The notes beneath the pieces were generated by a model. The model saw only the letters and a program-made list of their open reading frames with translations. It was not told the DNA's origin and did not search any database. Positions 1-19,368 of a stretch of 19,905 nt of DNA are shown here, piece after piece. The DNA lies in the IMG/VR virus record IMGVR_UViG_3300022932_000016, positions 1 through 19,905 of that record. One strand, given 5' to 3'. Both the position numbers and the translations under genes were made by a program. Within the stretch, counting starts at the first letter, position 1; each line of letters opens with the position of its first letter. Source of the stretch: a virus. Lineage: Duplodnaviria; Heunggongvirae; Uroviricota; Caudoviricetes.

Positions 1-269
1 GCAGGTCGCAATACGACTTCTTTGCTCTTTTCACCGCTCTTTGTCGCAATATGAAAGAACTCATCGGTTTGAGTGATGAGTTCTACTTTAAGCAGACGGT
101 TAACGAGCTGCTTAACTGTACCTTGTACGAAGCCAGATCGTGTGCTGATTGTTCCGATGGTAGACCGTGGATCAGTTGCTATAAGAAGTATAGCAAGTCG
201 TTCATCAGAAACGAGGTCTTTGAACCTACTGTCGCTGAAGAACCAAGTGTCTACCGTTGTTTTACTCAT
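1..269 (-). CDS. Partial CDS running off the window; N-terminal winged-helix-like protein, possibly a replication initiator or regulator
   Basis: My translation: MSKTTVDTWFFSDSRFKDLVSDERLAILLIATDPRSTIGTISTRSGFVQGTVKQLVNRLLKVELITQTDEFFHI..., open to the edge. TGnTACAAT lies 6 nt upstream of the ATG. The MarR/wHTH-like pattern is recognised by eye only. Confidence 0.6.
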   Translation of the reverse strand, partial: MSKTTVDTWFFSDSRFKDLVSDERLAILLIATDPRSTIGTISTRSGFVQGTVKQLVNRLLKVELITQTDEFFHIATKSGEKSKEVVLRP

Positions 270-307
270 GGCTTGATTGTAGCACATGAGCCTCTGTTAT
301 CAATGGG

Positions 308-535
308 TTAAATACCGATTGCGTTTTTGAGTGCTGGTCGGTCGAAACCGCGCACAATAGTGTCACCGATGACGGTCACAGGGACACCGCTACCGACGTT
401 GAGAGATTCAAACTCTTTCATCGCTGCTTCGTCTTCGTCAATCATCTTTGATTCGTATGCAACCCCGAGAGAGTCGAGCCATTGCTTTTCTGTTTTACAG
501 AATGCGCACCATGCAGTGCTATAAATTGTTACCAT
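308..535 (-). CDS. nrdH: NrdH-like glutaredoxin (75 aa)
   Basis: VTIYSTAWCAFC (CxxC), GVPVTVIG (cis-Pro) and GFD motifs. AGGAG precedes the ATG at 535. Confidence 0.85.
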   Translation of the reverse strand: MVTIYSTAWCAFCKTEKQWLDSLGVAYESKMIDEDEAAMKEFESLNVGSGVPVTVIGDTIVRGFDRPALKNAIGI

Positions 536-536
536 A

Positions 537-704
537 TTACTCCTGACCGAGAATGATGTTATCGTTAAGTGCAATTTCACCCAGCATACGGACTTCGGCT
601 TCGGTTACTAGACGTTCACCGTCTACTCCCCAAAGTTCGGGGTCCATAATGCGAGCGTAAACCGTTGGGCTTACTTCTGGGTTAAGACCTTCGAAGCCCG
701 CCAT
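537..704 (-). CDS. Hypothetical protein (55 aa, MAGFEGLNPE...)
   Basis: Start chosen at the TGATG overlap with the upstream gene; the stop lies 1 nt before the nrdH ATG. Confidence 0.6.
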   Translation of the reverse strand: MAGFEGLNPEVSPTVYARIMDPELWGVDGERLVTEAEVRMLGEIALNDNIILGQE

Positions 705-889
705 CACTGACAGCCTTCGCACATCAGAGCGTCTGATGGGTCAATAGGGGCTGCAACTCGACCTTGCGCTTTGGCTGTATTATCAGCTGTAGCTTGGGCA
801 TTTGCCATAGCAGCGTCGATAGCGGCCAGCTTTTCTTCTAGTGTCATTGTGTCGTTGATGAGTGTTGTTGCGTTCATTTGTTGCCCCAT
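704..889 (-). CDS. Small Ala-rich helical protein ending in CxxCQ
   Basis: ORF track protein ending ...APIDPSDALMCEGCQ, tightly coupled to the next two genes. Confidence 0.7.
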   Translation of the reverse strand: MGQQMNATTLINDTMTLEEKLAAIDAAMANAQATADNTAKAQGRVAAPIDPSDALMCEGCQ

Positions 890-952
890 TTTTAGTGTAA
901 ATAATAAGCACCTCTGTTCGAGTGCTTGGTTGTTCTGTACTTAGTATAACGG

Positions 953-984
953 GATTTGTCACGACACATTCCAAGTGACAAATC
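953..984. other. Perfect 10-bp inverted repeat at the distal end of the tRNA array
   Basis: GATTTGTCAC (953-962) / GTGACAAATC (975-984). No U-tract on either strand, so a processing or stability hairpin is more likely than an intrinsic terminator. Confidence 0.5.
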
Positions 985-995
985 AAATAAAATCT

Positions 996-1068
996 TGGTT
1001 CTCACGCTAGGACTCGCACCCAGATAATCGGTTCCAAAGACCGAGGTCCTACTTTAGACGACACGAGA
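996..1068 (-). tRNA. trnQ: tRNA-Gln(UUG)
   Basis: Acceptor TCTCGTG/CGTGAGA, anticodon arm TCGGT CTTTGGA ACCGA, variant T-loop TGCGAGT, encoded CCA. Confidence 0.9.
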
Positions 1069-1071
1069 TTA

Positions 1072-1147
1072 TGGGGTAAAAGATGAGAATTGAACTCACG
1101 TTATCGGCACCACAAGCCGACGTTCTAACCATTGAACTACTTTCACC
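1072..1147 (-). tRNA. trnH: tRNA-His(GUG)
   Basis: G-1:C73, anticodon arm TCGGC TTGTGGT GCCGA, T-loop TTCAATT, CCA. Confidence 0.93.
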
Positions 1148-1152
1148 ACGCT

Positions 1153-1216
1153 TGGCTCTGCACACGGGTTGCAACGTCATTGGGGAGATATCATGCCCTT
1201 TGACACATGTGCAGAG
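1153..1216 (-). ncRNA. CCA-ended tRNA-like RNA A (64 nt, no anticodon arm)
   Basis: CTCTGCACA/TGTGCAGAG terminal stem followed by CCA, D-arm-like GTGT CAAAGG GCAT and a degenerate T-arm ACG TTGCAACC CGT. Sits between tRNA-Ser and tRNA-His with 2- and 5-nt spacers. Confidence 0.6.
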
Positions 1217-1218
1217 TT

Positions 1219-1302
1219 TGGCGGAAGATTGGATAATCGAAAACCATGCTTTCACACTCATCGCTTAGCGGGCGAGTCCAGTACCTTACTGGTTAATCTT
1301 CC
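1219..1302 (-). tRNA. trnS: tRNA-Ser(GCU), atypical (C33)
   Basis: Acceptor GGAAGAT/ATCTTCC, loop CC-GCT-AA, variable arm with GAAA loop, T-loop TTCGATT, G73, CCA. Confidence 0.85.
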
Positions 1303-1305
1303 ATG

Positions 1306-1393
<88 letters not shown>

Positions 1394-1402
1394 ACATTTT
1401 TT

Positions 1403-1490
1403 TGGTCGGTCTAGCTAGATTCGAACTAGCACGAGGTGTTAACCTCCGCAGGGTTTAAGCCTGCTATGTCTACCATTCCATCATAGACCG
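1403..1490 (-). tRNA. trnL: tRNA-Leu(UAA)
   Basis: GCAGG CTTAAAC CCTGC, long variable arm, TTCGAAT, A73, CCA. Confidence 0.95.
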
Positions 1491-1495
1491 TTATT

Positions 1496-1582
1496 TGGTA
1501 CCGAAGGCGGGACTCGAACCCGCAAACTCTTTCGAGCACTGGTTCCTAAGACCAGCGTGTCTACCAATTCCACCACTTCGGC
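1496..1582 (-). tRNA. trnL: tRNA-Leu(UAG)
   Basis: GCCGAAGTGGTGGAATTGGTAGAC start, CTGGT CTTAGGA ACCAG, TTCGAGT, CCA. Confidence 0.96.
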
Positions 1583-1587
1583 ATATT

Positions 1588-1672
1588 TGGTGTGCTTACT
1601 CAGATTTGAACTGAGATGAGATTAACTCGGTAGCTTTTGAAACTACTGCGTATACCGTTCCGCCATAAGCAC
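1588..1672 (-). tRNA. trnL: tRNA-Leu(CAA)
   Basis: GTAGT TTCAAAA GCTAC, variable arm, TTCAAAT, CCA. Confidence 0.93.
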
Positions 1673-1677
1673 ATATT

Positions 1678-1752
1678 TGGAGAAACGTATCAGATTTGCA
1701 CTGATGTAAAACGGGTTTGCAATCCGTTGCGTAGCTGCTCCGCCAACGCTTC
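1678..1752 (-). tRNA. trnC: tRNA-Cys(GCA)
   Basis: ACGGA TTGCAAA CCCGT, U73, variant T-loop TGCAAAT, CCA. Confidence 0.9.
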
Positions 1753-1757
1753 ATATT

Positions 1758-1873
1758 TGGCACCCCCGCAAACCTTTAGGGTGAGCTAACAAGTGTTTTT
1801 TATAACGCGTATGTTGCACTTGCTTGCCTGCGTATCTACTCAGGTAATTAAGCTGAGCACTACAAACGGGGGT
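1758..1873 (-). ncRNA. CCA-ended non-cloverleaf RNA C (116 nt)
   Basis: 8-bp terminal stem ACCCCCGT/GCGGGGGT + G + CCA. Hairpins GCTCAG/CTGAGT, AGCAAGTG/CACTTGTT and ACC-CTAAA-GGT. Flanked by 5-nt AATAT spacers like the neighbouring tRNAs. Confidence 0.65.
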
Positions 1874-1878
1874 ATATT

Positions 1879-1949
1879 TGGTGAAGTAGGACGGAATCGA
1901 ACCATCGCCTTTTGATTTACAGTCAATCGGGTGCCCTGCACACTACAAC
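1879..1949 (-). tRNA. trnY: tRNA-Tyr(GUA), degenerate, short variable loop
   Basis: TTGA CTGTAAA TCAA, T-loop TTCGATT, CCA. Two T-T mismatches in the acceptor stem and a shrunken D-arm. Confidence 0.7.
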
Positions 1950-1954
1950 ATATT

Positions 1955-2031
1955 TGGTGGTTTCGGTCTGAATTGAACAGACGACCCCCTGTTCTTCAAA
2001 CAGGTGCTCTAACCAACTGAGCTACAAAACC
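1955..2031 (-). tRNA. trnF: tRNA-Phe(GAA)
   Basis: CCTGT TTGAAGA ACAGG, canonical D- and T-arms, CCA. Confidence 0.96.
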
Positions 2032-2075
2032 AAGTCGTACCTATCAGTTATAGACTATAGGTAAGTCTGTCTTGT

Positions 2076-2156
2076 TCGGGGAGCCAGGAGTTGAACCTGG
2101 GCATCGGGACTATATTACTCAGCTGCCCGCAGCACTATCGTTATGCTTACTCCCCG
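2076..2156 (-). tRNA. tRNA-like gene with a Pro-type acceptor, a 17-nt anticodon loop and no encoded CCA
   Basis: Perfect acceptor CGGGGAG/CTCCCCG + A73, D-arm AGCA/TGCT, T-arm CCAGG TTCAACT CCTGG. Anticodon stem CGGG/CCCG encloses CAGCTGAGTAATATAGT. Confidence 0.7.
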
Positions 2157-2161
2157 TTATA

Positions 2162-2236
2162 TGGTCAGTCCAGTAGGGTTCGAACCTACGGTCTCTTACT
2201 CCCAAAGCAAGCGTGATACCACTTCACTATAGACTG
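2162..2236 (-). tRNA. trnP: tRNA-Pro(UGG)
   Basis: C1-G72, CTTGC TTTGGGA GTAAG, TTCGAAC, CCA. Confidence 0.95.
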
Positions 2237-2241
2237 AAACT

Positions 2242-2316
2242 TGGCTCTAGATATTGGAATCGAACCAATCGCCTTCTCCTTAACAGGGAGCTGCCCTACC
2301 GATGGGCCGATCTAGA
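2242..2316 (-). tRNA. trnN: tRNA-Asn(GUU)
   Basis: CTCC CTGTTAA GGAG, G73, TTCGATT, CCA. Confidence 0.95.
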
Positions 2317-2321
2317 TTATT

Positions 2322-2396
2322 TGGCGCGACCAGCGAGAATTGAACTCGCGACTCTACCGTGACAGGGTAATATATTAACCACTATACTATGATCGC
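2322..2396 (-). tRNA. trnD: tRNA-Asp(GUC)
   Basis: TTACC CTGTCAC GGTAG, G73, TTCAATT, CCA. Confidence 0.95.
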
Positions 2397-2401
2397 AGAT
2401 T

Positions 2402-2484
2402 TGGCACACGTACACAGATTCGAACTGCTTAGCTTTCGCACAGGTTTTGGAGACCTGTTCCCATCGCCACTAGGGAGTACATGT
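2402..2484 (-). tRNA. trnW: tRNA-Trp(CCA) with an enlarged variable region
   Basis: CAGGT CTCCAAA ACCTG, variable region TGCGAAAGCTA, TTCGAAT, G73, CCA; 83 nt. Confidence 0.88.
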
Positions 2485-2489
2485 ATATT

Positions 2490-2845
2490 TGGGTGCTGGG
2501 TTTTGTTGATTTGTTACCAGCGTCTCGGTCAAGGTTAGCCCGCATCACGCGTGACTATCCTTGTCGAACCGATCAGACCTTTCATCGGTAGTCTGAATGA
2601 GCCTTATACTCTAGAGTCGCTTATCTCTCTTGAGCAGGGTGCGCTGAACGCTCCATAGGTCGGCAGACCTGTCGTACAACCATATTCGAGGGATAGGAGT
2701 GTATGCCCCAGCTTAATCTATCGCTCTTTGCAATAGACCCTCTGTTAACTCGACCACGCGCTACCCATCTCGGTTTCAAGCGTCGTCACAGAGTTTCACT
2801 CTCCGTTTGCAGCTATACCGAGCCAAAGCCTTGTCCGTCGGTTTA
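2490..2845 (-). ncRNA. Large structured RNA D (about 350 nt, 5' end approximate) ending in CCA
   Basis: No long ORF. Many stems, including CTCGGT/ACCGAG, GGGT(A)GCGC/GCGCACCC, TCTATTGC/GCGATAGA, AGGTC/GACCT, TCAGAC/GTCTGA and CAAGG-TAGTC-CGC/GCG-GGCTA-CCTTG. The 3' end ...CCCAGCAC-CCA lies 5 nt before tRNA-Trp. Confidence 0.7.
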
Positions 2846-2851
2846 ATTGTT

Positions 2852-2887
2852 AAAAAAAGACACCTACTTTTTTGGGTAGATGTCTTT
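2852..2887 (-). terminator. Intrinsic terminator of attenuator 2
   Basis: 12-bp stem AAAGACATCTAC/GTAGGTGTCTTT with an 8-nt loop, running into a U-tract. Confidence 0.85.
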
Positions 2888-2938
2888 CGTTGTTTTTGTT
2901 TTCAAATCTTCTTATGAAGAAAACGACAAGACACCTAC
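2876..2938 (-). promoter_or_regulatory. Antiterminator of attenuator 2
   Basis: GTAGGTGTCTT-G-TCGTT (in the last codons of the leader ORF) pairs with AACGA-AAGACATCTAC, the 5' arm of the terminator: 16 bp, mutually exclusive with the terminator. Confidence 0.8.
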
Positions 2939-3004
2939 ACTAAATTGATCTGGGCAATTTGACCAGAGCTGTGAGAGTAGTGAGTGACTATATAATGTCT
3001 TCAT
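2912..3004 (-). CDS. Leaderless attenuator leader peptide 2 (30 aa)
   Basis: MKTLYSHSLLSQLWSNCPDQFSVGVLSFSS*. The ATG is 6 nt after TATAAT and the ORF overlaps the antiterminator. Confidence 0.8.
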   Translation of the reverse strand: MKTLYSHSLLSQLWSNCPDQFSVGVLSFSS

Positions 3005-3010
3005 AATTTC

Positions 3011-3040
3011 ATTATACCATAAAAATAAATGGCAGTGCAA
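3011..3040 (-). promoter_or_regulatory. Sigma70-type promoter of tRNA unit 2
   Basis: TTGCAC-N18-TATAAT with an extended -10 (TGgTATAAT). Confidence 0.8.
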
Positions 3041-3055
3041 TAGATTTAATAATTT

Positions 3056-3130
3056 TGGTCACCCATACCAGAGTTGAACTGGTCTTGCATGATTGAAAAT
3101 CATGTGTCCTAACCGATAGACGAATGGGCG
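3056..3130 (-). tRNA. trnE: tRNA-Glu(UUC)
   Basis: CATGA TTTTCAA TCATG, TTCAACT, CCA. Confidence 0.94.
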
Positions 3131-3135
3131 ATATG

Positions 3136-3212
3136 TGGTGAAACCGATAGGGATCGAACCTATGACACCCTGATTAAGAGTCAGGTGCTCTAACCAACTG
3201 AGCTACGGTTCC
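3136..3212 (-). tRNA. trnK: tRNA-Lys(CUU)
   Basis: CCTGA CTCTTAA TCAGG, canonical arms, CCA. Confidence 0.96.
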
Positions 3213-3309
3213 GTATCGTGAGAAGGTGCTACGAGAAGTTTCGGCTCATACGTCCATGCAATTCCTGCCTGGTTTGACCTCGTAATCATACTTGCTACCA
3301 ACATGTATT
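3213..3309 (-). ncRNA. Structured 97-nt spacer element E
   Basis: TACGAG/CTCGTA stem enclosing the hairpin CCA-G-GCA GGAAT TGC-A-TGG; much longer than the usual 2-8 nt spacers. Confidence 0.35.
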
Positions 3310-3385
3310 TGGTGGAGTTGCAGAGAATCGAACTCTGGTGAAGACGTTGCAAACGTCCCATAATAAACCGTTATATGACAACCCC
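3310..3385 (-). tRNA. trnA: tRNA-Ala(UGC)
   Basis: G3-U70, GGACG TTTGCAA CGTCT, TTCGATT, ACCA. Confidence 0.95.
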
Positions 3386-3393
3386 GAATTGTT

Positions 3394-3469
3394 TGGTAGT
3401 TCCCGCTGGACTTGAACCAGCACCAGCTTCGTTAGAACCGAAGTGCCCTATCCATTAGACCAGAGAACC
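3394..3469 (-). tRNA. trnR: tRNA-Arg(UCU)
   Basis: CTTCG GTTCTAA CGAAG, TTCAAGT, CCA. Confidence 0.93.
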
Positions 3470-3697
3470 TTATATTTCTGCTTTGAGGTATTTATCGAGC
3501 AGGTCGTTGACTTGAGTAATGTGAATCATACCAGCTTGTTTCACAGCTATTTCACCAAAGTGTCTGCGTAGTACTTCAAAACCCTGTTCGAGTGCTTGCG
3601 TTTCTTCTTCAATGATGTCGCGAGTTAGGTCATGCACTAGACTTTCAGCTTGTCGTTTGACTAAGTTTGGGTCTGGGTCTTTGCGGTATGCTTCCAT
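3470..3697 (-). CDS. Hypothetical protein (75 aa) inserted in the tRNA array
   Basis: MEAYRKDPDPNLVKRQAESLV..., TATAAT (3704-3709) 6 nt before the ATG, stop abutting tRNA-Arg. Confidence 0.7.
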   Translation of the reverse strand: MEAYRKDPDPNLVKRQAESLVHDLTRDIIEEETQALEQGFEVLRRHFGEIAVKQAGMIHITQVNDLLDKYLKAEI

Positions 3698-3713
3698 ACT
3701 CTCATTATACGTA

Positions 3714-3788
3714 TGGTGCGGGTACACAGAATCGAACTGTGATCCCCTGATTGGAAGTCAGGTATATTAGCCGTTATACTATACCCGC
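3714..3788 (-). tRNA. trnG: tRNA-Gly(UCC)
   Basis: CCTGA CTTCCAA TCAGG, TTCGATT, A73, CCA. Confidence 0.94.
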
Positions 3789-3795
3789 ATTGATT

Positions 3796-3873
3796 TGGAG
3801 CCCCTCACGGAGTCGAACCGTTCTTCGTACCTACCACGGTACGCGTGCTAACCAGCGTTACACTAATTGGGGC
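3796..3873 (-). tRNA. Aberrant tRNA-Thr(GGU)-like gene with an 8-nt anticodon loop
   Basis: GCCCC/GGGGC acceptor with distal mismatches, D-arm GTGT/GCAC, CGTAC CGTGGTAG GTACG, 4-bp T-stem with TTCGACT, CCA. Confidence 0.65.
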
Positions 3874-3876
3874 GTA

Positions 3877-3950
3877 TGGGGCCGCCACTCGGTACTGCCC
3901 CGAGGTCGATAGTTTACAAAACTACTACTCTACTATTGAGCTATAGCGGC
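3877..3950 (-). tRNA. trnT: tRNA-Thr(UGU)
   Basis: GTAGT TTTGTAA ACTAT, variant T-loop GGCAGTA, D-loop AATAGTA, CCA. Confidence 0.9.
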
Positions 3951-3957
3951 ACGTTCT

Positions 3958-4033
3958 TGGTAGTCCCAGAAGGAATTGCACCCTCGACACCTTGTTCCGA
4001 AGACAAGTGCTCTATCTGCTGAGCTATGGGACT
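3958..4033 (-). tRNA. trnR: tRNA-Arg(UCG)
   Basis: CTTGT CTTCGGA ACAAG, variant T-loop TGCAATT, CCA. Confidence 0.92.
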
Positions 4034-4036
4034 ATA

Positions 4037-4140
4037 TGGTGCACGGGGGTAGCTTTAGGCTACCTCTATTCTAATAACGCTTTGGTGCACCTCTACGCTT
4101 TCGATTCTCGAGCCACGTTGCAACGATGTGCTCTCCGTAC
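4037..4140 (-). ncRNA. CCA-ended non-cloverleaf RNA B (104 nt)
   Basis: Terminal stem GTACGG/CCGTGC + A + CCA, 3' hairpin GGTAGC-CTAAA-GCTACC, 5' hairpin GAGC...CGTTGCAACG...GCTC, flanked by 5- and 3-nt spacers. Confidence 0.65.
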
Positions 4141-4145
4141 TAATT

Positions 4146-4230
4146 TGGTTGCGGGGACGGGATTCGAACCCGTGTATCTTGCGACAAAGGGATATGAGCC
4201 CTCCGAGAATGACCACTTCTCAACCCCGCT
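4146..4230 (-). tRNA. trnfM: Initiator-type tRNA-Met(CAU) with a long variable arm
   Basis: 1:72 mismatch (A-A), three G-C pairs GGG/CCC in the anticodon stem, loop CTCATAT, variable arm TGTC-GCAA-GATA, ACCA; 85 nt. Confidence 0.9.
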
Positions 4231-4235
4231 ATATG

Positions 4236-4312
4236 TGGTCGTCCCTCTAAGATTCGAACTTAGGACCTCCTGTGTGTAAAACAGGTGCTCTAGCCAATTG
4301 AGCTAAGGGACG
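4236..4312 (-). tRNA. trnV: tRNA-Val(UAC)
   Basis: CCTGT TTTACAC ACAGG, TTCGAAT, ACCA. Confidence 0.96.
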
Positions 4313-4320
4313 TTATTGTT

Positions 4321-4394
4321 TGGTCGGTGTAGGTGGTTCTGCCCCACCGTGTGCAGAATATAAGTCTGCTGTTCTACTATTGAACTATACACCA
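4321..4394 (-). tRNA. trnI: tRNA-Ile(UAU)
   Basis: GCAGA CTTATAT TCTGC, variant T-loop GGCAGAA, D-loop AATAGTA, ACCA. Confidence 0.88.
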
Positions 4395-4401
4395 GAATGC
4401 T

Positions 4402-4478
4402 TGGTTGGACGAGTAGGATTTGAACCTACGGTCTCCTGAATATCAGTCAAGTGCTTTAACCAGCTAAGCTACCGTCCA
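4402..4478 (-). tRNA. trnI: tRNA-Ile(GAU)
   Basis: CTTGA CTGATAT TCAGG, TTCAAAT, ACCA. Confidence 0.95.
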
Positions 4479-4485
4479 TTATTTT

Positions 4486-4560
4486 TGGTGGGCTCGGTTG
4501 GAATCGAACCAACGTGGTACAGATTAAAAGTCTGCTGCTCAACCACTGAGCCACGAACCC
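4486..4560 (-). tRNA. trnK: tRNA-Lys(UUU)
   Basis: GCAGA CTTTTAA TCTGT, TTCGATT, ACCA. Confidence 0.96.
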
Positions 4561-4567
4561 AAGATAT

Positions 4568-4589
4568 AAAAAAAGAGCTATATAGCTCC
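4568..4589 (-). terminator. Intrinsic terminator of attenuator 1
   Basis: GGAGCT-ATAT-AGCTCT followed by a U-tract that ends 7 nt before tRNA-Lys(UUU). Confidence 0.75.
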
Positions 4590-4613
4590 AACTATGACTT
4601 GAGTTGTAAGCTA
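4583..4613 (-). promoter_or_regulatory. Antiterminator of attenuator 1
   Basis: TAGCTT-A-CAACT / AGTTG-GAGCTA (11 bp) sequesters the 5' arm of the terminator; it begins 2 nt after the leader stop codon. Confidence 0.75.
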
Positions 4614-4615
4614 AC

Positions 4616-4777
4616 TTATTCCTTTTTCTTTTCACCCCGTTTTGTTAATGTACCCATAATGAACCCTGTCGCCACTGCTATAGCAATAATGCCGCCAGCA
4701 ATCACTGTCGTCTCTTTGGTGCGCTTGACGTATTTAACTAGGTCAGTTGCTTCTTTTTGAATCTTTTGGGTATTCAT
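4616..4777 (-). CDS. Leaderless leader ORF 1 (53 aa), putative attenuator peptide with a hydrophobic segment
   Basis: MNTQKIQKEATDLVKYVKRTKETTVIAGGIIAIAVATGFIMGTLTKRGEKKKE*; the ATG is 7 nt after TATAAT. Confidence 0.75.
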   Translation of the reverse strand: MNTQKIQKEATDLVKYVKRTKETTVIAGGIIAIAVATGFIMGTLTKRGEKKKE

Positions 4778-4784
4778 AGTATTC

Positions 4785-4812
4785 ATTATACACATATTAG
4801 TATATAATGCAA
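4785..4812 (-). promoter_or_regulatory. Sigma70-type promoter of tRNA unit 1
   Basis: TTGCAT-N16-TATAAT. Confidence 0.7.
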
Positions 4813-4814
4813 AA

Positions 4815-4943
4815 TGCGCGGGGGCACAGCAACGGGTAGTGAGTGCACTATATCTGTTGGATCGTAAGACCAACCATAATTTACTGATTATAAAGCGATG
4901 CGCCAAATCAGTCATGTAGACCTCTTAGCGGGGGTCTATTTTT
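4815..4943 (+). ncRNA. Candidate structured small RNA or leader ending in an intrinsic terminator
   Basis: TATAAT at 4803-4808. Hairpins TAGTG/CACTA, GTTGG-ATC-GTAA-GA-CCAAC and ACTGATT/AATCAGT, then the terminator TAGACCTC/GGGGTCTA + TTTTT (4917-4943). Confidence 0.4.
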
Positions 4944-4968
4944 AGTGTATAGTAGCTGTTAGAAAACT

Positions 4969-5172
4969 ATGACAAAATACTCTATATACGAAATCGGTGA
5001 AAAAGCAAACAAGAACCGAGACTCTCTCGACTTCGAAAAGTGGTTAGAGCGCACCCTCAAACATATAACTGAAAAGATCGACCCAGAGTTCAATCGAGAA
5101 AAGTTTGCGGAATGGCTCGAGGAAGACGACGAAAAACCATTTATTTCTGGTAAAAATCGCTATTTTTGGTAG
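4969..5172 (+). CDS. Hypothetical protein (67 aa)
   Basis: ORF track; first gene of the plus-strand block. Confidence 0.65.
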   Translation: MTKYSIYEIGEKANKNRDSLDFEKWLERTLKHITEKIDPEFNREKFAEWLEEDDEKPFISGKNRYFW

Positions 5173-5204
5173 AAACAAAGGACTTTTCCTGCTATAATAA
5201 GAAT

Positions 5205-5636
5205 ATGAAAGATATTCAGAACGAAGCAGAAACAGGTGTACAAACCATCACAGAGCTACAGCTGAACCTCGCGCAAATCGAGAACGAGCTGCAAACCAAC
5301 CCTAAGTTCATTGAGTTCCTACGCGTCCAGGACGAGCTTAACGCAAAGCGTTCAGAGTTCGATTCGACAATGAAAGACTTGATGATTGAGCGGTTCAAAG
5401 ATACTGGTGAAAAGAAGCTAGAAGTTGGTAACGCAACTTTCGCGCTGACACCACGTGAAGAGCTGATAATCACAGACGAAGACAAAGTTGACGATGCCTT
5501 CGTTACTAAAGTAACCGTAAAGAAACTCGACAAAGAAGCAGTGAAGGCTGTTCAAGTTCTTGAGGGTCGCCTCGTTGACGGAGTCGGTGTTCGACAATCA
5601 TTCGCATACAAACTAACCATTAAGGATAACGAATAA
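5205..5636 (+). CDS. Siphovirus Gp157/Gam-like coiled-coil protein
   Basis: N-terminal coiled coil plus IITDEDKVDDAF...KKLDKEAVK...VDGV pattern, directly upstream of RecT. TGcTATAAT lies 6 nt before the ATG at 5205. Confidence 0.7.
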   Translation: MKDIQNEAETGVQTITELQLNLAQIENELQTNPKFIEFLRVQDELNAKRSEFDSTMKDLMIERFKDTGEKKLEVGNATFALTPREELIITDEDKVDDAFVTKVTVKKLDKEAVKAVQVLEGRLVDGVGVRQSFAYKLTIKDNE

Positions 5637-11923: not shown

Positions 11924-12182
11924 ACCACTACACCGACTTGCAGAAGAAATCATGCGTGATGACGCTGCAGGTAAACTTCCGTTACATTATACTCACGATG
12001 ATATAATCGCTGTGACTGTAGTGTTTTCTCACGTAATGGGTGCACGTTTTGTGCAGTACCTTGAGAAAGAGAAGATAGGGCTAGGGGCAAGCAGAAAACT
12101 CACGAAGGGCCTAGGAGCCAAGATAAGTGACACTGTTATGTATGCAACCGATATAGACGTAAAAATAAAAGAGGTAGTATGA
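11901..12182 (+). CDS. Hypothetical protein
   Basis: ORF track. Confidence 0.65.
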   Translation: MMQTEKLEPLHRLAEEIMRDDAAGKLPLHYTHDDIIAVTVVFSHVMGARFVQYLEKEKIGLGASRKLTKGLGAKISDTVMYATDIDVKIKEVV

Positions 12183-12313
12183 GCAAAAACGAAGAAGAAG
12201 ACAAAGGCGGAGCACTAATTGTAGGTACAGCCGCAGCAATTGTTATCGCGTGTATTGTAGCTGTCGTAATCGCATTGGCAATTGCAGCAATCAAGTGGAT
12301 CCTGGGTCTTTAA
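12179..12313 (+). CDS. Small membrane protein (44 aa)
   Basis: My translation MSKNEEEDKGGALIVGTAAAIVIACIVAVVIALAIAAIKWILGL*; ATGA overlap and GAGG upstream. Confidence 0.65.
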   Translation: MSKNEEEDKGGALIVGTAAAIVIACIVAVVIALAIAAIKWILGL

Positions 12314-18222: not shown

Positions 18223-19368
18223 CTAGGCTAGATGATCGAGGTGGTGAGAGGGGTTATACCAGCCGTCAGTCTTGAGATCGTGAAGCCGAGAGAGGTAAGC
18301 GTCAAACTGTAAAGCGACAGGTTCAAGAGAGAATCGTTCTTGCGCTCGCTTACGAATGACACGACGTTGCGCAGTTGTAAAGTTTTCAGTCCTACGTACT
18401 GCTTCTAAGAAGTCACCGAATGTATTGCAACGGTAACCGTCTACACCTTGCAAAACAGTTTGAGCGAAGATACCGAAGTTTGTAGTGATAACAGGTGTAC
18501 CAGATAATAGAGACTCAACGTGGACGTTACCGCCTGGCTCAAGATAAGTCGTAGGCATAAGCACAGCGTCAGCGTGGCTCATCAGCTTACCGCGTTCTTT
18601 AACACCGATTGTGCCGATGTATTCACCGTAACCCGTGAACTCTTGCCCTTCGTTAAGCTGACCAGCGATAATAAGACGCTTGCCGAGGTGTTGTGCAACC
18701 TGTTGAGCGATATTATAGCCCTTGCGGTCAATTAAACGACCGATGTATAGAAGATAATTACCCTTTTTGTCACCGCGTTTCACAGCGAATGGGAACTGTT
18801 CTTTAGGGTGGTAAGGTGGAATCACTGCATCGTAAAACTTTCCGTCATCATCGTGACGTTCACCGTACACATAGTGTTGGTGGGTGATAGACTCGAATAC
18901 CTTATAAGGCGAATAAACACCTGTGTAGCCAATAAACAGCTCAGGTGCGATAAGGTCAGGTAGCGCGTCAGTGACTTGCTTCTGGCAGTAGCCAGCTAAA
19001 ACACCAAATAGAACGTCTTCGTCTGGGTGTTCTTTGATATAATCTTGCAAAAATGTGATAGTTCTGTCGTTATATAGAACCCAGTGGGGGTCGTTAGGCT
19101 CCCAAGTCAGGTTGTACATCGTCTTTTTGTACGCGAGTGGGTCACCGAAGAATCTTTCTTGTTCTTTTTTGGTGATAATCGGTACGTGTGAGTGCCCTTC
19201 TTCGTCGATGTCGCAGTCTTCTCCACCAAGTGTAATTACTTTGTACCCAATACGGGCCATCATAATAGCAAAATTGCGCACCTTAGATTGGTACGCGTCA
19301 CTGGAGTATTCTGTGGTCAAGTGTGTGTGTGGTAGTCCTGCGACTACAATAGTAAATCTATCGCTCAT
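18223..19368 (-). CDS. GT-B fold glycosyltransferase (GT4-like)
   Basis: YLLYIGRLIDRKG, EPGGNVHVESLLSGTPVIT and GVDGY motifs; TATAAT lies 6 nt before the ATG. Confidence 0.9.
   Translation of the reverse strand: MSDRFTIVVAGLPHTHLTTEYSSDAYQSKVRNFAIMMARIGYKVITLGGEDCDIDEEGHSHVPIITKKEQERFFGDPLAYKKTMYNLTWEPNDPHWVLYNDRTITFLQDYIKEHPDEDVLFGVLAGYCQKQVTDALPDLIAPELFIGYTGVYSPYKVFESITHQHYVYGERHDDDGKFYDAVIPPYHPKEQFPFAVKRGDKKGNYLLYIGRLIDRKGYNIAQQVAQHLGKRLIIAGQLNEGQEFTGYGEYIGTIGVKERGKLMSHADAVLMPTTYLEPGGNVHVESLLSGTPVITTNFGIFAQTVLQGVDGYRCNTFGDFLEAVRRTENFTTAQRRVIRKRAQERFSLEPVALQFDAYLSRLHDLKTDGWYNPSHHLDHLA

Follow-up and report, generated by a model that had tools for sequence, protein, structure and literature searches.

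A 53-codon open reading frame (ORF) and an intrinsic terminator lie directly upstream of the first gene of a phage tRNA array, and their arrangement raises the question of what decides whether transcription enters the tRNA genes. In the current view, such genes help phages to cope with codon mismatch and with tRNA-cutting nucleases of the host; the control of their expression has hardly been studied. The locus belongs to an IMG/VR phage record of 83.9 kb (46% G+C), of which the first 19.9 kb (19,905 nucleotides) make up the window that we analysed. An earlier note on this DNA had read the unit as an attenuator in which the ORF is the leader. With moderate confidence, we favour a modified form of this reading: the unit may be a translation-coupled transcription attenuator in which a conserved, leaderless membrane-protein gene doubles as the leader.

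The tRNA array and its entry point

The array occupies the minus strand at 996-4560. ARAGORN counts 22 genes in it, and Rfam adds tRNA-Ile(UAU) at 4394-4324, tRNA-Thr(UGU) at 3950-3880 and, as a weak match, a third at 1952-1882, which brings the number to about 25. The tRNA-Ile(UAU) that the earlier note had placed downstream of the leader was missed by ARAGORN, and the Rfam match, with the anticodon loop CUUAUAU, bears it out. A polynucleotide kinase is also encoded by the phage. Searches of 50,697 phage records with megablast, blastn and tblastn gave only tRNA-level matches, and the neighbouring RecT-like and Pnk proteins matched distant phages only; by these searches the phage is without a close cultured relative.

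The first gene of the array is tRNA-Lys(UUU) (4560-4486, minus strand), which starts 7 nt after the T run of the terminator and is separated from the terminator stem by 13 nt. We found no sigma-70-like promoter on the minus strand between 4574 and 3709: TATAAT is absent from it, and so is any -10 box close to the consensus that has a usable -35 box. Transcription of the first eight tRNA genes, Lys(UUU) to Gly(UCC), thus needs read-through of the terminator, and these genes should be reached only by polymerases that pass it, barring a promoter of an unrecognised type.

At 3709-3704 (minus strand) there is a promoter-like TATAAT, followed after 6 nt by the ATG of a 75-codon ORF (3697-3470). A single base separates the end of this ORF from tRNA-Arg(UCU), and there is no terminator between them. 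An extra promoter is therefore available to the last four tRNAs of the group that the earlier note had called unit 1. The ORF also shows that the array contains ordinary small genes and that some of its ORFs are not attenuators.

The 53-codon ORF and its start

The ORF runs from the ATG at 4777 to the TAA at 4618-4616 (minus strand, 4777-4616 with the stop codon). Its product has a basic amphipathic N-terminal part, a transmembrane helix at residues 23-44 and a tail rich in Lys, Arg and Glu that ends, as the earlier note had read, in KRGEKKKE; four of the last eight codons are Lys codons. The same note had listed the codons in use correctly, since ACC, ACT, ACG and ACA, AAA and AAG, ATT and ATA, and GAA and GAG all occur.

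Six close relatives have 87-98% protein identity. Among them, 15 of the 23 variable sites in the ORF fall on third codon positions, and replacements in the hydrophobic stretch are exchanges among Ala, Val and Thr. The dN/dS comparison that the earlier note had proposed gives 0.12-0.3 within the close clade, which indicates purifying selection on the protein. Scans of viral contigs with the protein and with a profile, a search with the back-translated pattern ETTVIAGGI and a metagenome scan all found the close clade only. Two divergent members, P0006 from a profile search of 1.84 billion representative proteins and P0007 from a follow-up search, have 53 residues and 58-62% identity; the divergent homologues are on short metagenome contigs, L011 and L013. 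Between clades dN/dS is 0.17-0.22, with synonymous sites near saturation (pS about 0.65).

The protein alignment has 25 invariant columns and a length of 53 in all copies. The stretch E22-I30 (ETT.IAGGI) is conserved, with only position 25 varying (V or A, in L005). Three helix glycines are among the invariant columns, and G38 and G42 are invariant. Over 19 residues the mean hydropathy is as high as 2.09, and AlphaFold models the protein as a single uninterrupted helix (pLDDT 71). For the 53-aa protein, we found no match above noise in Pfam, PHROG or PDB and only weak leads in the ESM Atlas, all below 0.9 (including DUF883_C at 0.77); the sole matches in the profile search of the 1.84 billion representatives were the 53-aa family itself.

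The third-position bias and the low dN/dS indicate that the ORF is translated. Purifying selection, a fixed length of 53 codons and a transmembrane core together lead us to conclude that, by the measure of these comparisons, it is a real, conserved small single-pass membrane protein that belongs to no described family. The earlier note had warned that its hydrophobic residues 25-41 could be a genuine membrane helix, and this warning was well placed, as the hydrophobic segment covers residues 23-44 of a conserved small membrane protein. What has to be given up is the idea that the ORF is a mere leader, given its dN/dS, its constant length, its conserved core and its single-helix model.

Such strong conservation at a fixed length, which alone explains the presence of the ORF, makes a simpler explanation a serious one. 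An ordinary small membrane-protein gene could be transcribed from a promoter of its own and end in a terminator that is constitutively leaky. The hairpin upstream of the terminator would then only keep read-through at a constant level or stabilise the short mRNA at its 3' end, the position of the ribosome would be irrelevant and the tRNAs would be made as a fixed fraction of the transcripts. We think this explanation possible but somewhat improbable, and we return to it below wherever the evidence touches it.

Upstream of the ORF lies a sigma-70-type promoter (4813-4785, minus strand) with TTTGCA at 4813-4808, a 17-nt spacer and TATAAT at 4790-4785, matching the consensus at 10 of 12 positions. 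Its -10 box ends 7 nt before the ATG at 4777, so that the mRNA, whose transcription start we infer from the promoter, would have no 5' leader or almost none. The sequence GTGTATAAT is kept in all three clades, where it ends 7, 9 and 10 nt upstream of the ATG, and a Shine-Dalgarno sequence is absent before the ORF in each of them. The longer frame reported by gene callers starts at an upstream ATG inside the -10 box; in the divergent homologues the sole ATG is the one that aligns with 4777.

The combination of TATAAT with an ATG 5-9 nt later repeats at other gene starts across the whole phage genome, including those at 19368, 13335, 5206, 3697 and 3004, and the gene at 19368 encodes a 381-aa glycosyltransferase. 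This spread means that leaderless starts are a general habit of the phage and its host, not a hallmark of attenuators, and it suggests that leaderless mRNAs are widespread here and that the host translates them well. It also fits the leaky-terminator explanation, as leaderless small genes are common in the phage and one of them lies in the array with no terminator.

We considered a possible third unit upstream (minus strand, 4812-4915), with a promoter-like sequence at 4915-4887, a 9-codon ORF and a weak terminator-like hairpin at 4828-4815. It was rejected as probably not functional: the fold is no better than those of shuffled sequences, and the ATG is ATA in L015. The close relative L012 carries an inserted HNH endonuclease gene (1014-1541), which separates the divergent genes from the promoter of the 53-codon ORF and leaves the promoter-ORF-terminator unit intact.

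Terminator, antiterminator and the position of the ribosome

The intrinsic terminator (4589-4568, minus strand) has a 6-bp stem formed by 4589-4584 and 4579-4574, a 4-nt loop and seven Ts at 4574-4568. At -6.8 kcal/mol this short stem is weak, and the terminator could simply be leaky, as the explanation by a fixed read-through holds. Just upstream, the antiterminator (4613-4583, minus strand) consists of a 5' arm at 4613-4602 with A4607 bulged, an 8-nt loop at 4601-4594 and a 3' arm at 4593-4583; its 11 bp give -10.0 kcal/mol, and it is the minimum-energy fold of the region. The earlier note had described an 11-bp antiterminator that starts 2 nt after TAA and captures the 5' arm of the terminator, and both points hold. 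All six bases of that arm (4589-4584) lie within the antiterminator, so that the two hairpins are mutually exclusive.

With the terminator held fixed and the 26-nt segment upstream of it shuffled or drawn from the genome, at least five of the six arm bases were captured with an advantage of at least 3 kcal/mol in about 1% of the shuffled or random genomic segments. Under one simple rule, capture of the whole 5' arm is unique among the 37 terminator-like hairpins of the whole phage, in a scan whose 40-nt folding window is too short for the partner in the second unit of the array (3016-2858). We consider this predicted terminator/antiterminator pair to be real and statistically unusual, and the fact that it holds the sole captured arm among the 37 argues against an ordinary leaky terminator.

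In free RNA, the A-rich end of the ORF (codons 49-53, 4632-4621, minus strand) can pair with the 3' arm and the U tract of the terminator. This pairing encloses the antiterminator, and a similar long-range pairing is found in L011; it may be a simple by-product of the Lys codons. We saw no pause or synchronising hairpin.

Both divergent homologues have the same layout as the window: a promoter next to the ATG and an ORF of 53 codons are followed by antiterminator, terminator and U tract and, 4-7 nt further on, by tRNA-Lys(UUU). Their hairpin sequences are unlike those of the window. The antiterminator of L011, in which 550-563 pairs with 569-582 (13 bp, -16.2 kcal/mol), begins inside the stop codon and captures six bases of the eight-base terminator arm at 577-584. 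In L013, 494-498 pairs with 520-524 and 502-506 with 512-516 (-10.2 kcal/mol in nascent RNA), and five of the seven arm bases are captured. The stability of the L011 and L013 antiterminators is matched by 3-4% of shuffles. In all three clades the antiterminator starts within -1 to +2 nt of the stop codon. A fixed tuner of read-through has no need of a 5' arm that adjoins the stop codon in this way, but the spacer of 26-27 nt leaves little room for it elsewhere.

The shared arm itself has changed between the divergent clades. Where L011 has A578, L013 has G521; the partner in the terminator 3' arm has changed from U594 to C537 and the partner in the antiterminator 5' arm from U554 to C497, so that both helices keep their pairing. 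A second compensatory change affects the terminator, in which L011 and L013 have a G-C pair against U4584-A4579 in the window. These pairs were compared by hand, as a MAFFT alignment of the 3' UTRs across clades puts the stems out of register, and three clades are too few for a covariance model. The close relatives are too similar for covariation to be visible among them: both stems are invariant, and changes in the 3' UTR fall in loops and flanks, save A4583G, which keeps a U-G pair. Loop base 4582 of the terminator has three states among the relatives while the stem is kept. We regard the comparison, which is based on three related clades and one three-way event, as good though thin evidence that both predicted helices are maintained across clades. 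A change in the shared arm that keeps the pairing in both helices also speaks against the leaky-terminator explanation. For the earlier note, conservation of a membrane protein with loss of the antiterminator was the outcome that would tell against an attenuator; the homologues do conserve the protein and keep the antiterminator as well, which is a mixed outcome.

We then modelled a ribosome on the ORF by hiding the mRNA up to 13-15 nt past the first base of the A site and folding the remainder. With no ribosome, or with the A site at least three codons before the stop codon, the antiterminator forms in the nascent RNA of all three clades. Moving the A site to the last sense codon or to the stop codon abolishes it in all three, as a matter of geometry. 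The earlier note's statement that the antiterminator starts inside the footprint of a terminating ribosome is thereby upheld in terms of geometry, as only a ribosome on one of these two codons blocks the hairpin. In the window, the equilibrium probability of the terminator is 0.05-0.24 with the ribosome absent or early and 1.0 with the ribosome at the end of the ORF. The corresponding values are 0.5-0.9 and 1.0 for L011, and 0.8-1.0 and 1.0 for L013. The terminators of L011 and L013 are, on sequence evidence, stronger than that of the window; in L013 the terminator state is favoured over the antiterminator state by 4.8 kcal/mol, and in L011 the two states are about equal. Given the high probability of the terminator without a ribosome in these two clades, a switch there would have to be kinetic, with the antiterminator forming first. 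The classical trp attenuator also works kinetically. That the terminator of L013 wins at equilibrium with or without a ribosome is equally what one would expect of an ordinary gene with a leaky terminator.

The hairpins could also form an RNA-processing or insulating element, which would serve as a site where mRNA and tRNA precursor are cut (for example by RNase III or RNase E) or would protect the 3' end after RNase P cleavage, with the T run being incidental. Their place exactly at the junction of mRNA and tRNA, 7 nt before the RNase P site, would suit such a role, and so would the minimum-energy fold of the free UTR in L011 and L013, which consists of two adjacent hairpins and not one exclusive hairpin. 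We treat this as a minor and quite unlikely alternative. In all clades a GC-containing stem is followed immediately by an unbroken run of 6-7 U, as is characteristic of intrinsic terminators. RNase III would need longer stems, and processing requires neither the overlap of the helices nor its compensatory upkeep.

Under the translation-coupled attenuator that we favour, host RNA polymerase would start at or within a few bases of the ATG at 4777, and a 70S ribosome would load on the leaderless 5' end and trail the polymerase through the 53 codons. A ribosome that keeps pace would occupy the last sense codon or the stop codon during the synthesis of 4613-4574, with its footprint covering 4613 to about 4606. 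From the stop codon to the U tract there are 48 nt, a distance that would fit a ribosome close behind the polymerase. With the antiterminator blocked, the terminator with its 6-bp stem and seven Us would fold, and transcription would end 7 nt before tRNA-Lys(UUU). If initiation failed, or if the ribosome lagged anywhere in the ORF, including the Lys codons near the stop, the stronger antiterminator would form first, tie up the 5' arm of the terminator and let the polymerase continue into the tRNA genes. Slow translation would then raise the output of phage tRNAs. In this scheme we infer from the sequence that translation is leaderless, how ribosome and polymerase are timed relative to each other and whatever response there may be to the supply of tRNAs. 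The ORF would serve two purposes in this scheme, as a membrane protein and as the leader of an attenuator.

A second promoter-ORF-terminator unit with a 30-codon ORF is located 1.6 kb downstream (3016-2858). A copy of the 3' arm of its terminator (GTAGGTGTCTT) lies inside this ORF, about 10-20 nt before the stop codon, which points to the same logic built from unrelated sequence. The earlier note had claimed that its attenuator 2 shares the logic of the first and not its sequence, and on a reading of the sequence we agree, since a competitor for the terminator arm lies under the path of the ribosome here too. That an unrelated unit has such a competitor is a further point against a terminator that is merely leaky.

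Leader composition, known attenuators and host defence

The tRNAs between the 53-codon unit and the unit at 3016-2858 serve K, I, V, M, R, T, G, A and E, and those after the second unit serve the other eleven amino acids. In the 53-codon ORF, 45 of the 53 residues belong to the set of nine, compared with 55% in the phage proteome. This level is reached by 0.6% of the 53-aa windows of the proteome, in 2 of 109 proteins, and only 6 of 167,960 sets of nine amino acids cover as many residues. When both leaders are considered together, the real partition of the amino acids ranks first.

There are simpler sources of such a match. The nine amino acids are, save Arg CGN, those with purine-first codons, and the caveat in the earlier note about a purine-rich ORF proved apt, with 64% purine in this ORF and 43% in the second leader. 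In a 44-aa control membrane ORF on the plus strand (12179-12313), which does not lie near tRNA genes, the nine amino acids make up 80% of the residues, and in the divergent homologues 77%. The nearly equal composition of a membrane ORF that lies away from tRNA genes counts in favour of the leaky-terminator explanation, and this explanation is also at ease with L009, a more distant relative in which an ORF and a tRNA have no terminator between them. The choice of codons is not tuned to U34 anticodons, as GGA and GUA are absent, Gly being encoded by GGC, GGG and GGT and Val by GTT, GTC and GTG. A codon-level match to U34 anticodons was tried as support and adds none (33 of 53 codons under strict wobble, by hand count). 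The control ORF at 12179-12313 has an acidic N-terminus and an A/I/V-rich transmembrane helix.

The leader is thus rich in the amino acids that the earlier note had named (45 of 53 residues), and the meaning of the match to the downstream tRNAs is confounded by the make-up of a membrane helix, purine richness, the control ORF and the homologues. Because of the purine-first set, the 80% control, the 77% in the homologues and the lack of a U34 codon bias, we consider the match suggestive for the pair of units and weak for the 53-codon unit alone. That the unit senses the supply of the downstream tRNAs is an attractive but unproven idea.

Leader-peptide attenuators are well known from trpL, hisL, leuL and thrL, from the multivalent leaders of ilvGMEDA and ilvBN, and from pheM, the leader of pheST; their peptides are disposable and have 14-32 residues. 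The phage unit resembles these enterobacterial systems in that a translated ORF lies close to the promoter, an intrinsic terminator precedes the genes under control and the antiterminator uses the 5' arm of the terminator. It would also work like them, as a ribosome at the stop codon is predicted to mask the 5' strand of the antiterminator and cause termination, and a lagging ribosome to allow read-through. In pheM/pheST the same logic acts on genes of the translation apparatus. Unlike these systems, the phage unit would regulate tRNA genes, and its leader, at 53 codons, codes for a membrane protein that is conserved. It has no run of a single codon and no 1:2 pause or anti-antiterminator hairpin, its mRNA would be leaderless and its antiterminator lies wholly after the stop codon.

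The E. coli pyrBI attenuator has a 44-codon leader and is controlled by the coupling of transcription and translation. Both it and the phage unit have a long leader ORF, and in both the distance between ribosome and polymerase, not a single amino acid, would decide on termination. The sign is opposite: a close ribosome prevents the terminator in pyrBI, whereas in the phage unit it would permit the terminator by blocking the antiterminator. T-boxes bind uncharged tRNA directly and need no translation. The phage unit is like them in a choice between terminator and antiterminator that would report on tRNA status and in its association with translation-related genes, but has no Rfam T-box match in 4561-4812; a cmscan of positions 1-5300 of the window with E up to 1 returned tRNA-type matches only, none of them within 4561-4812.

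If the attenuator is real, the phage would make tRNAs in proportion to its trouble with translation, with the logic of attenuation applied to the decoding machinery, and a conserved protein-coding gene, not only a disposable mini-peptide, could occupy the position of the leader. In a full-text search of the literature we found no description of leader-peptide attenuation of tRNA genes.

It is tempting to speculate about host defence. The nuclease PrrC targets tRNA-Lys(UUU) (PMC10264068), and two further studies report that phage tRNAs can rescue infection from tRNA-targeting defences (PMC11555353, PMC12409363). Promoters, terminators and attenuation go unmentioned in the phage-tRNA papers PMC10264068 and PMC12482277. 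Like the tRNA arrays discussed as counter-defence, this phage has about 25 tRNA genes and a polynucleotide kinase, and the first tRNA after the switch is tRNA-Lys(UUU). The 53-codon gene might then act as a counter-defence sensor, with a host anticodon nuclease or depletion of tRNAs stalling ribosomes on its Lys codons or on others, so that the antiterminator forms and replacement tRNAs are induced, tRNA-Lys(UUU) first, while the same frame makes a membrane protein. We think this doubtful as a specific proposal, and a link of the unit to host defence is conceivable. Should it be true, it would be a case of feedback control of tRNA genes by translation of a leader, which we did not find in the literature.

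The relatives also show some minor features of the arrays. L009, found by RecT synteny (69% RecT identity), has no 53-codon ORF and was uninformative as a source of covariation, since a different ORF is fused to a tRNA-Met with no terminator between. This ORF has 76 codons, is rich in Q, E and M and ends 3 nt before the tRNA-Met, and a terminator is found only past that tRNA. The tRNA array of L009 (3617-4684) is sparser and is broken by a 145-aa gene that, judged by eye from its sequence, is presumably QueD-like (6-pyruvoyl-tetrahydropterin synthase). The tRNA-Met(CAU) of the window (4146-4230) has 85-86 nt, as if with a long variable arm, which is unusual for Met or Ile2, and this length is conserved in L009 (4365-4450). 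In L013, a 70-nt tRNA-like gene at 791-860, between Ile(UAU) and Val(UAC), is called Cys(ACA) by ARAGORN; its position 33 is C and its anticodon stem has 4 bp, so it may be degenerate or non-canonical.

On the plus strand of the window, a strong terminator-like hairpin at 4917-4938 (9 bp, -11 kcal/mol, followed by TTTTT) precedes the divergent plus-strand gene at 4969 and may stop antisense transcription that leaves the tRNA array.
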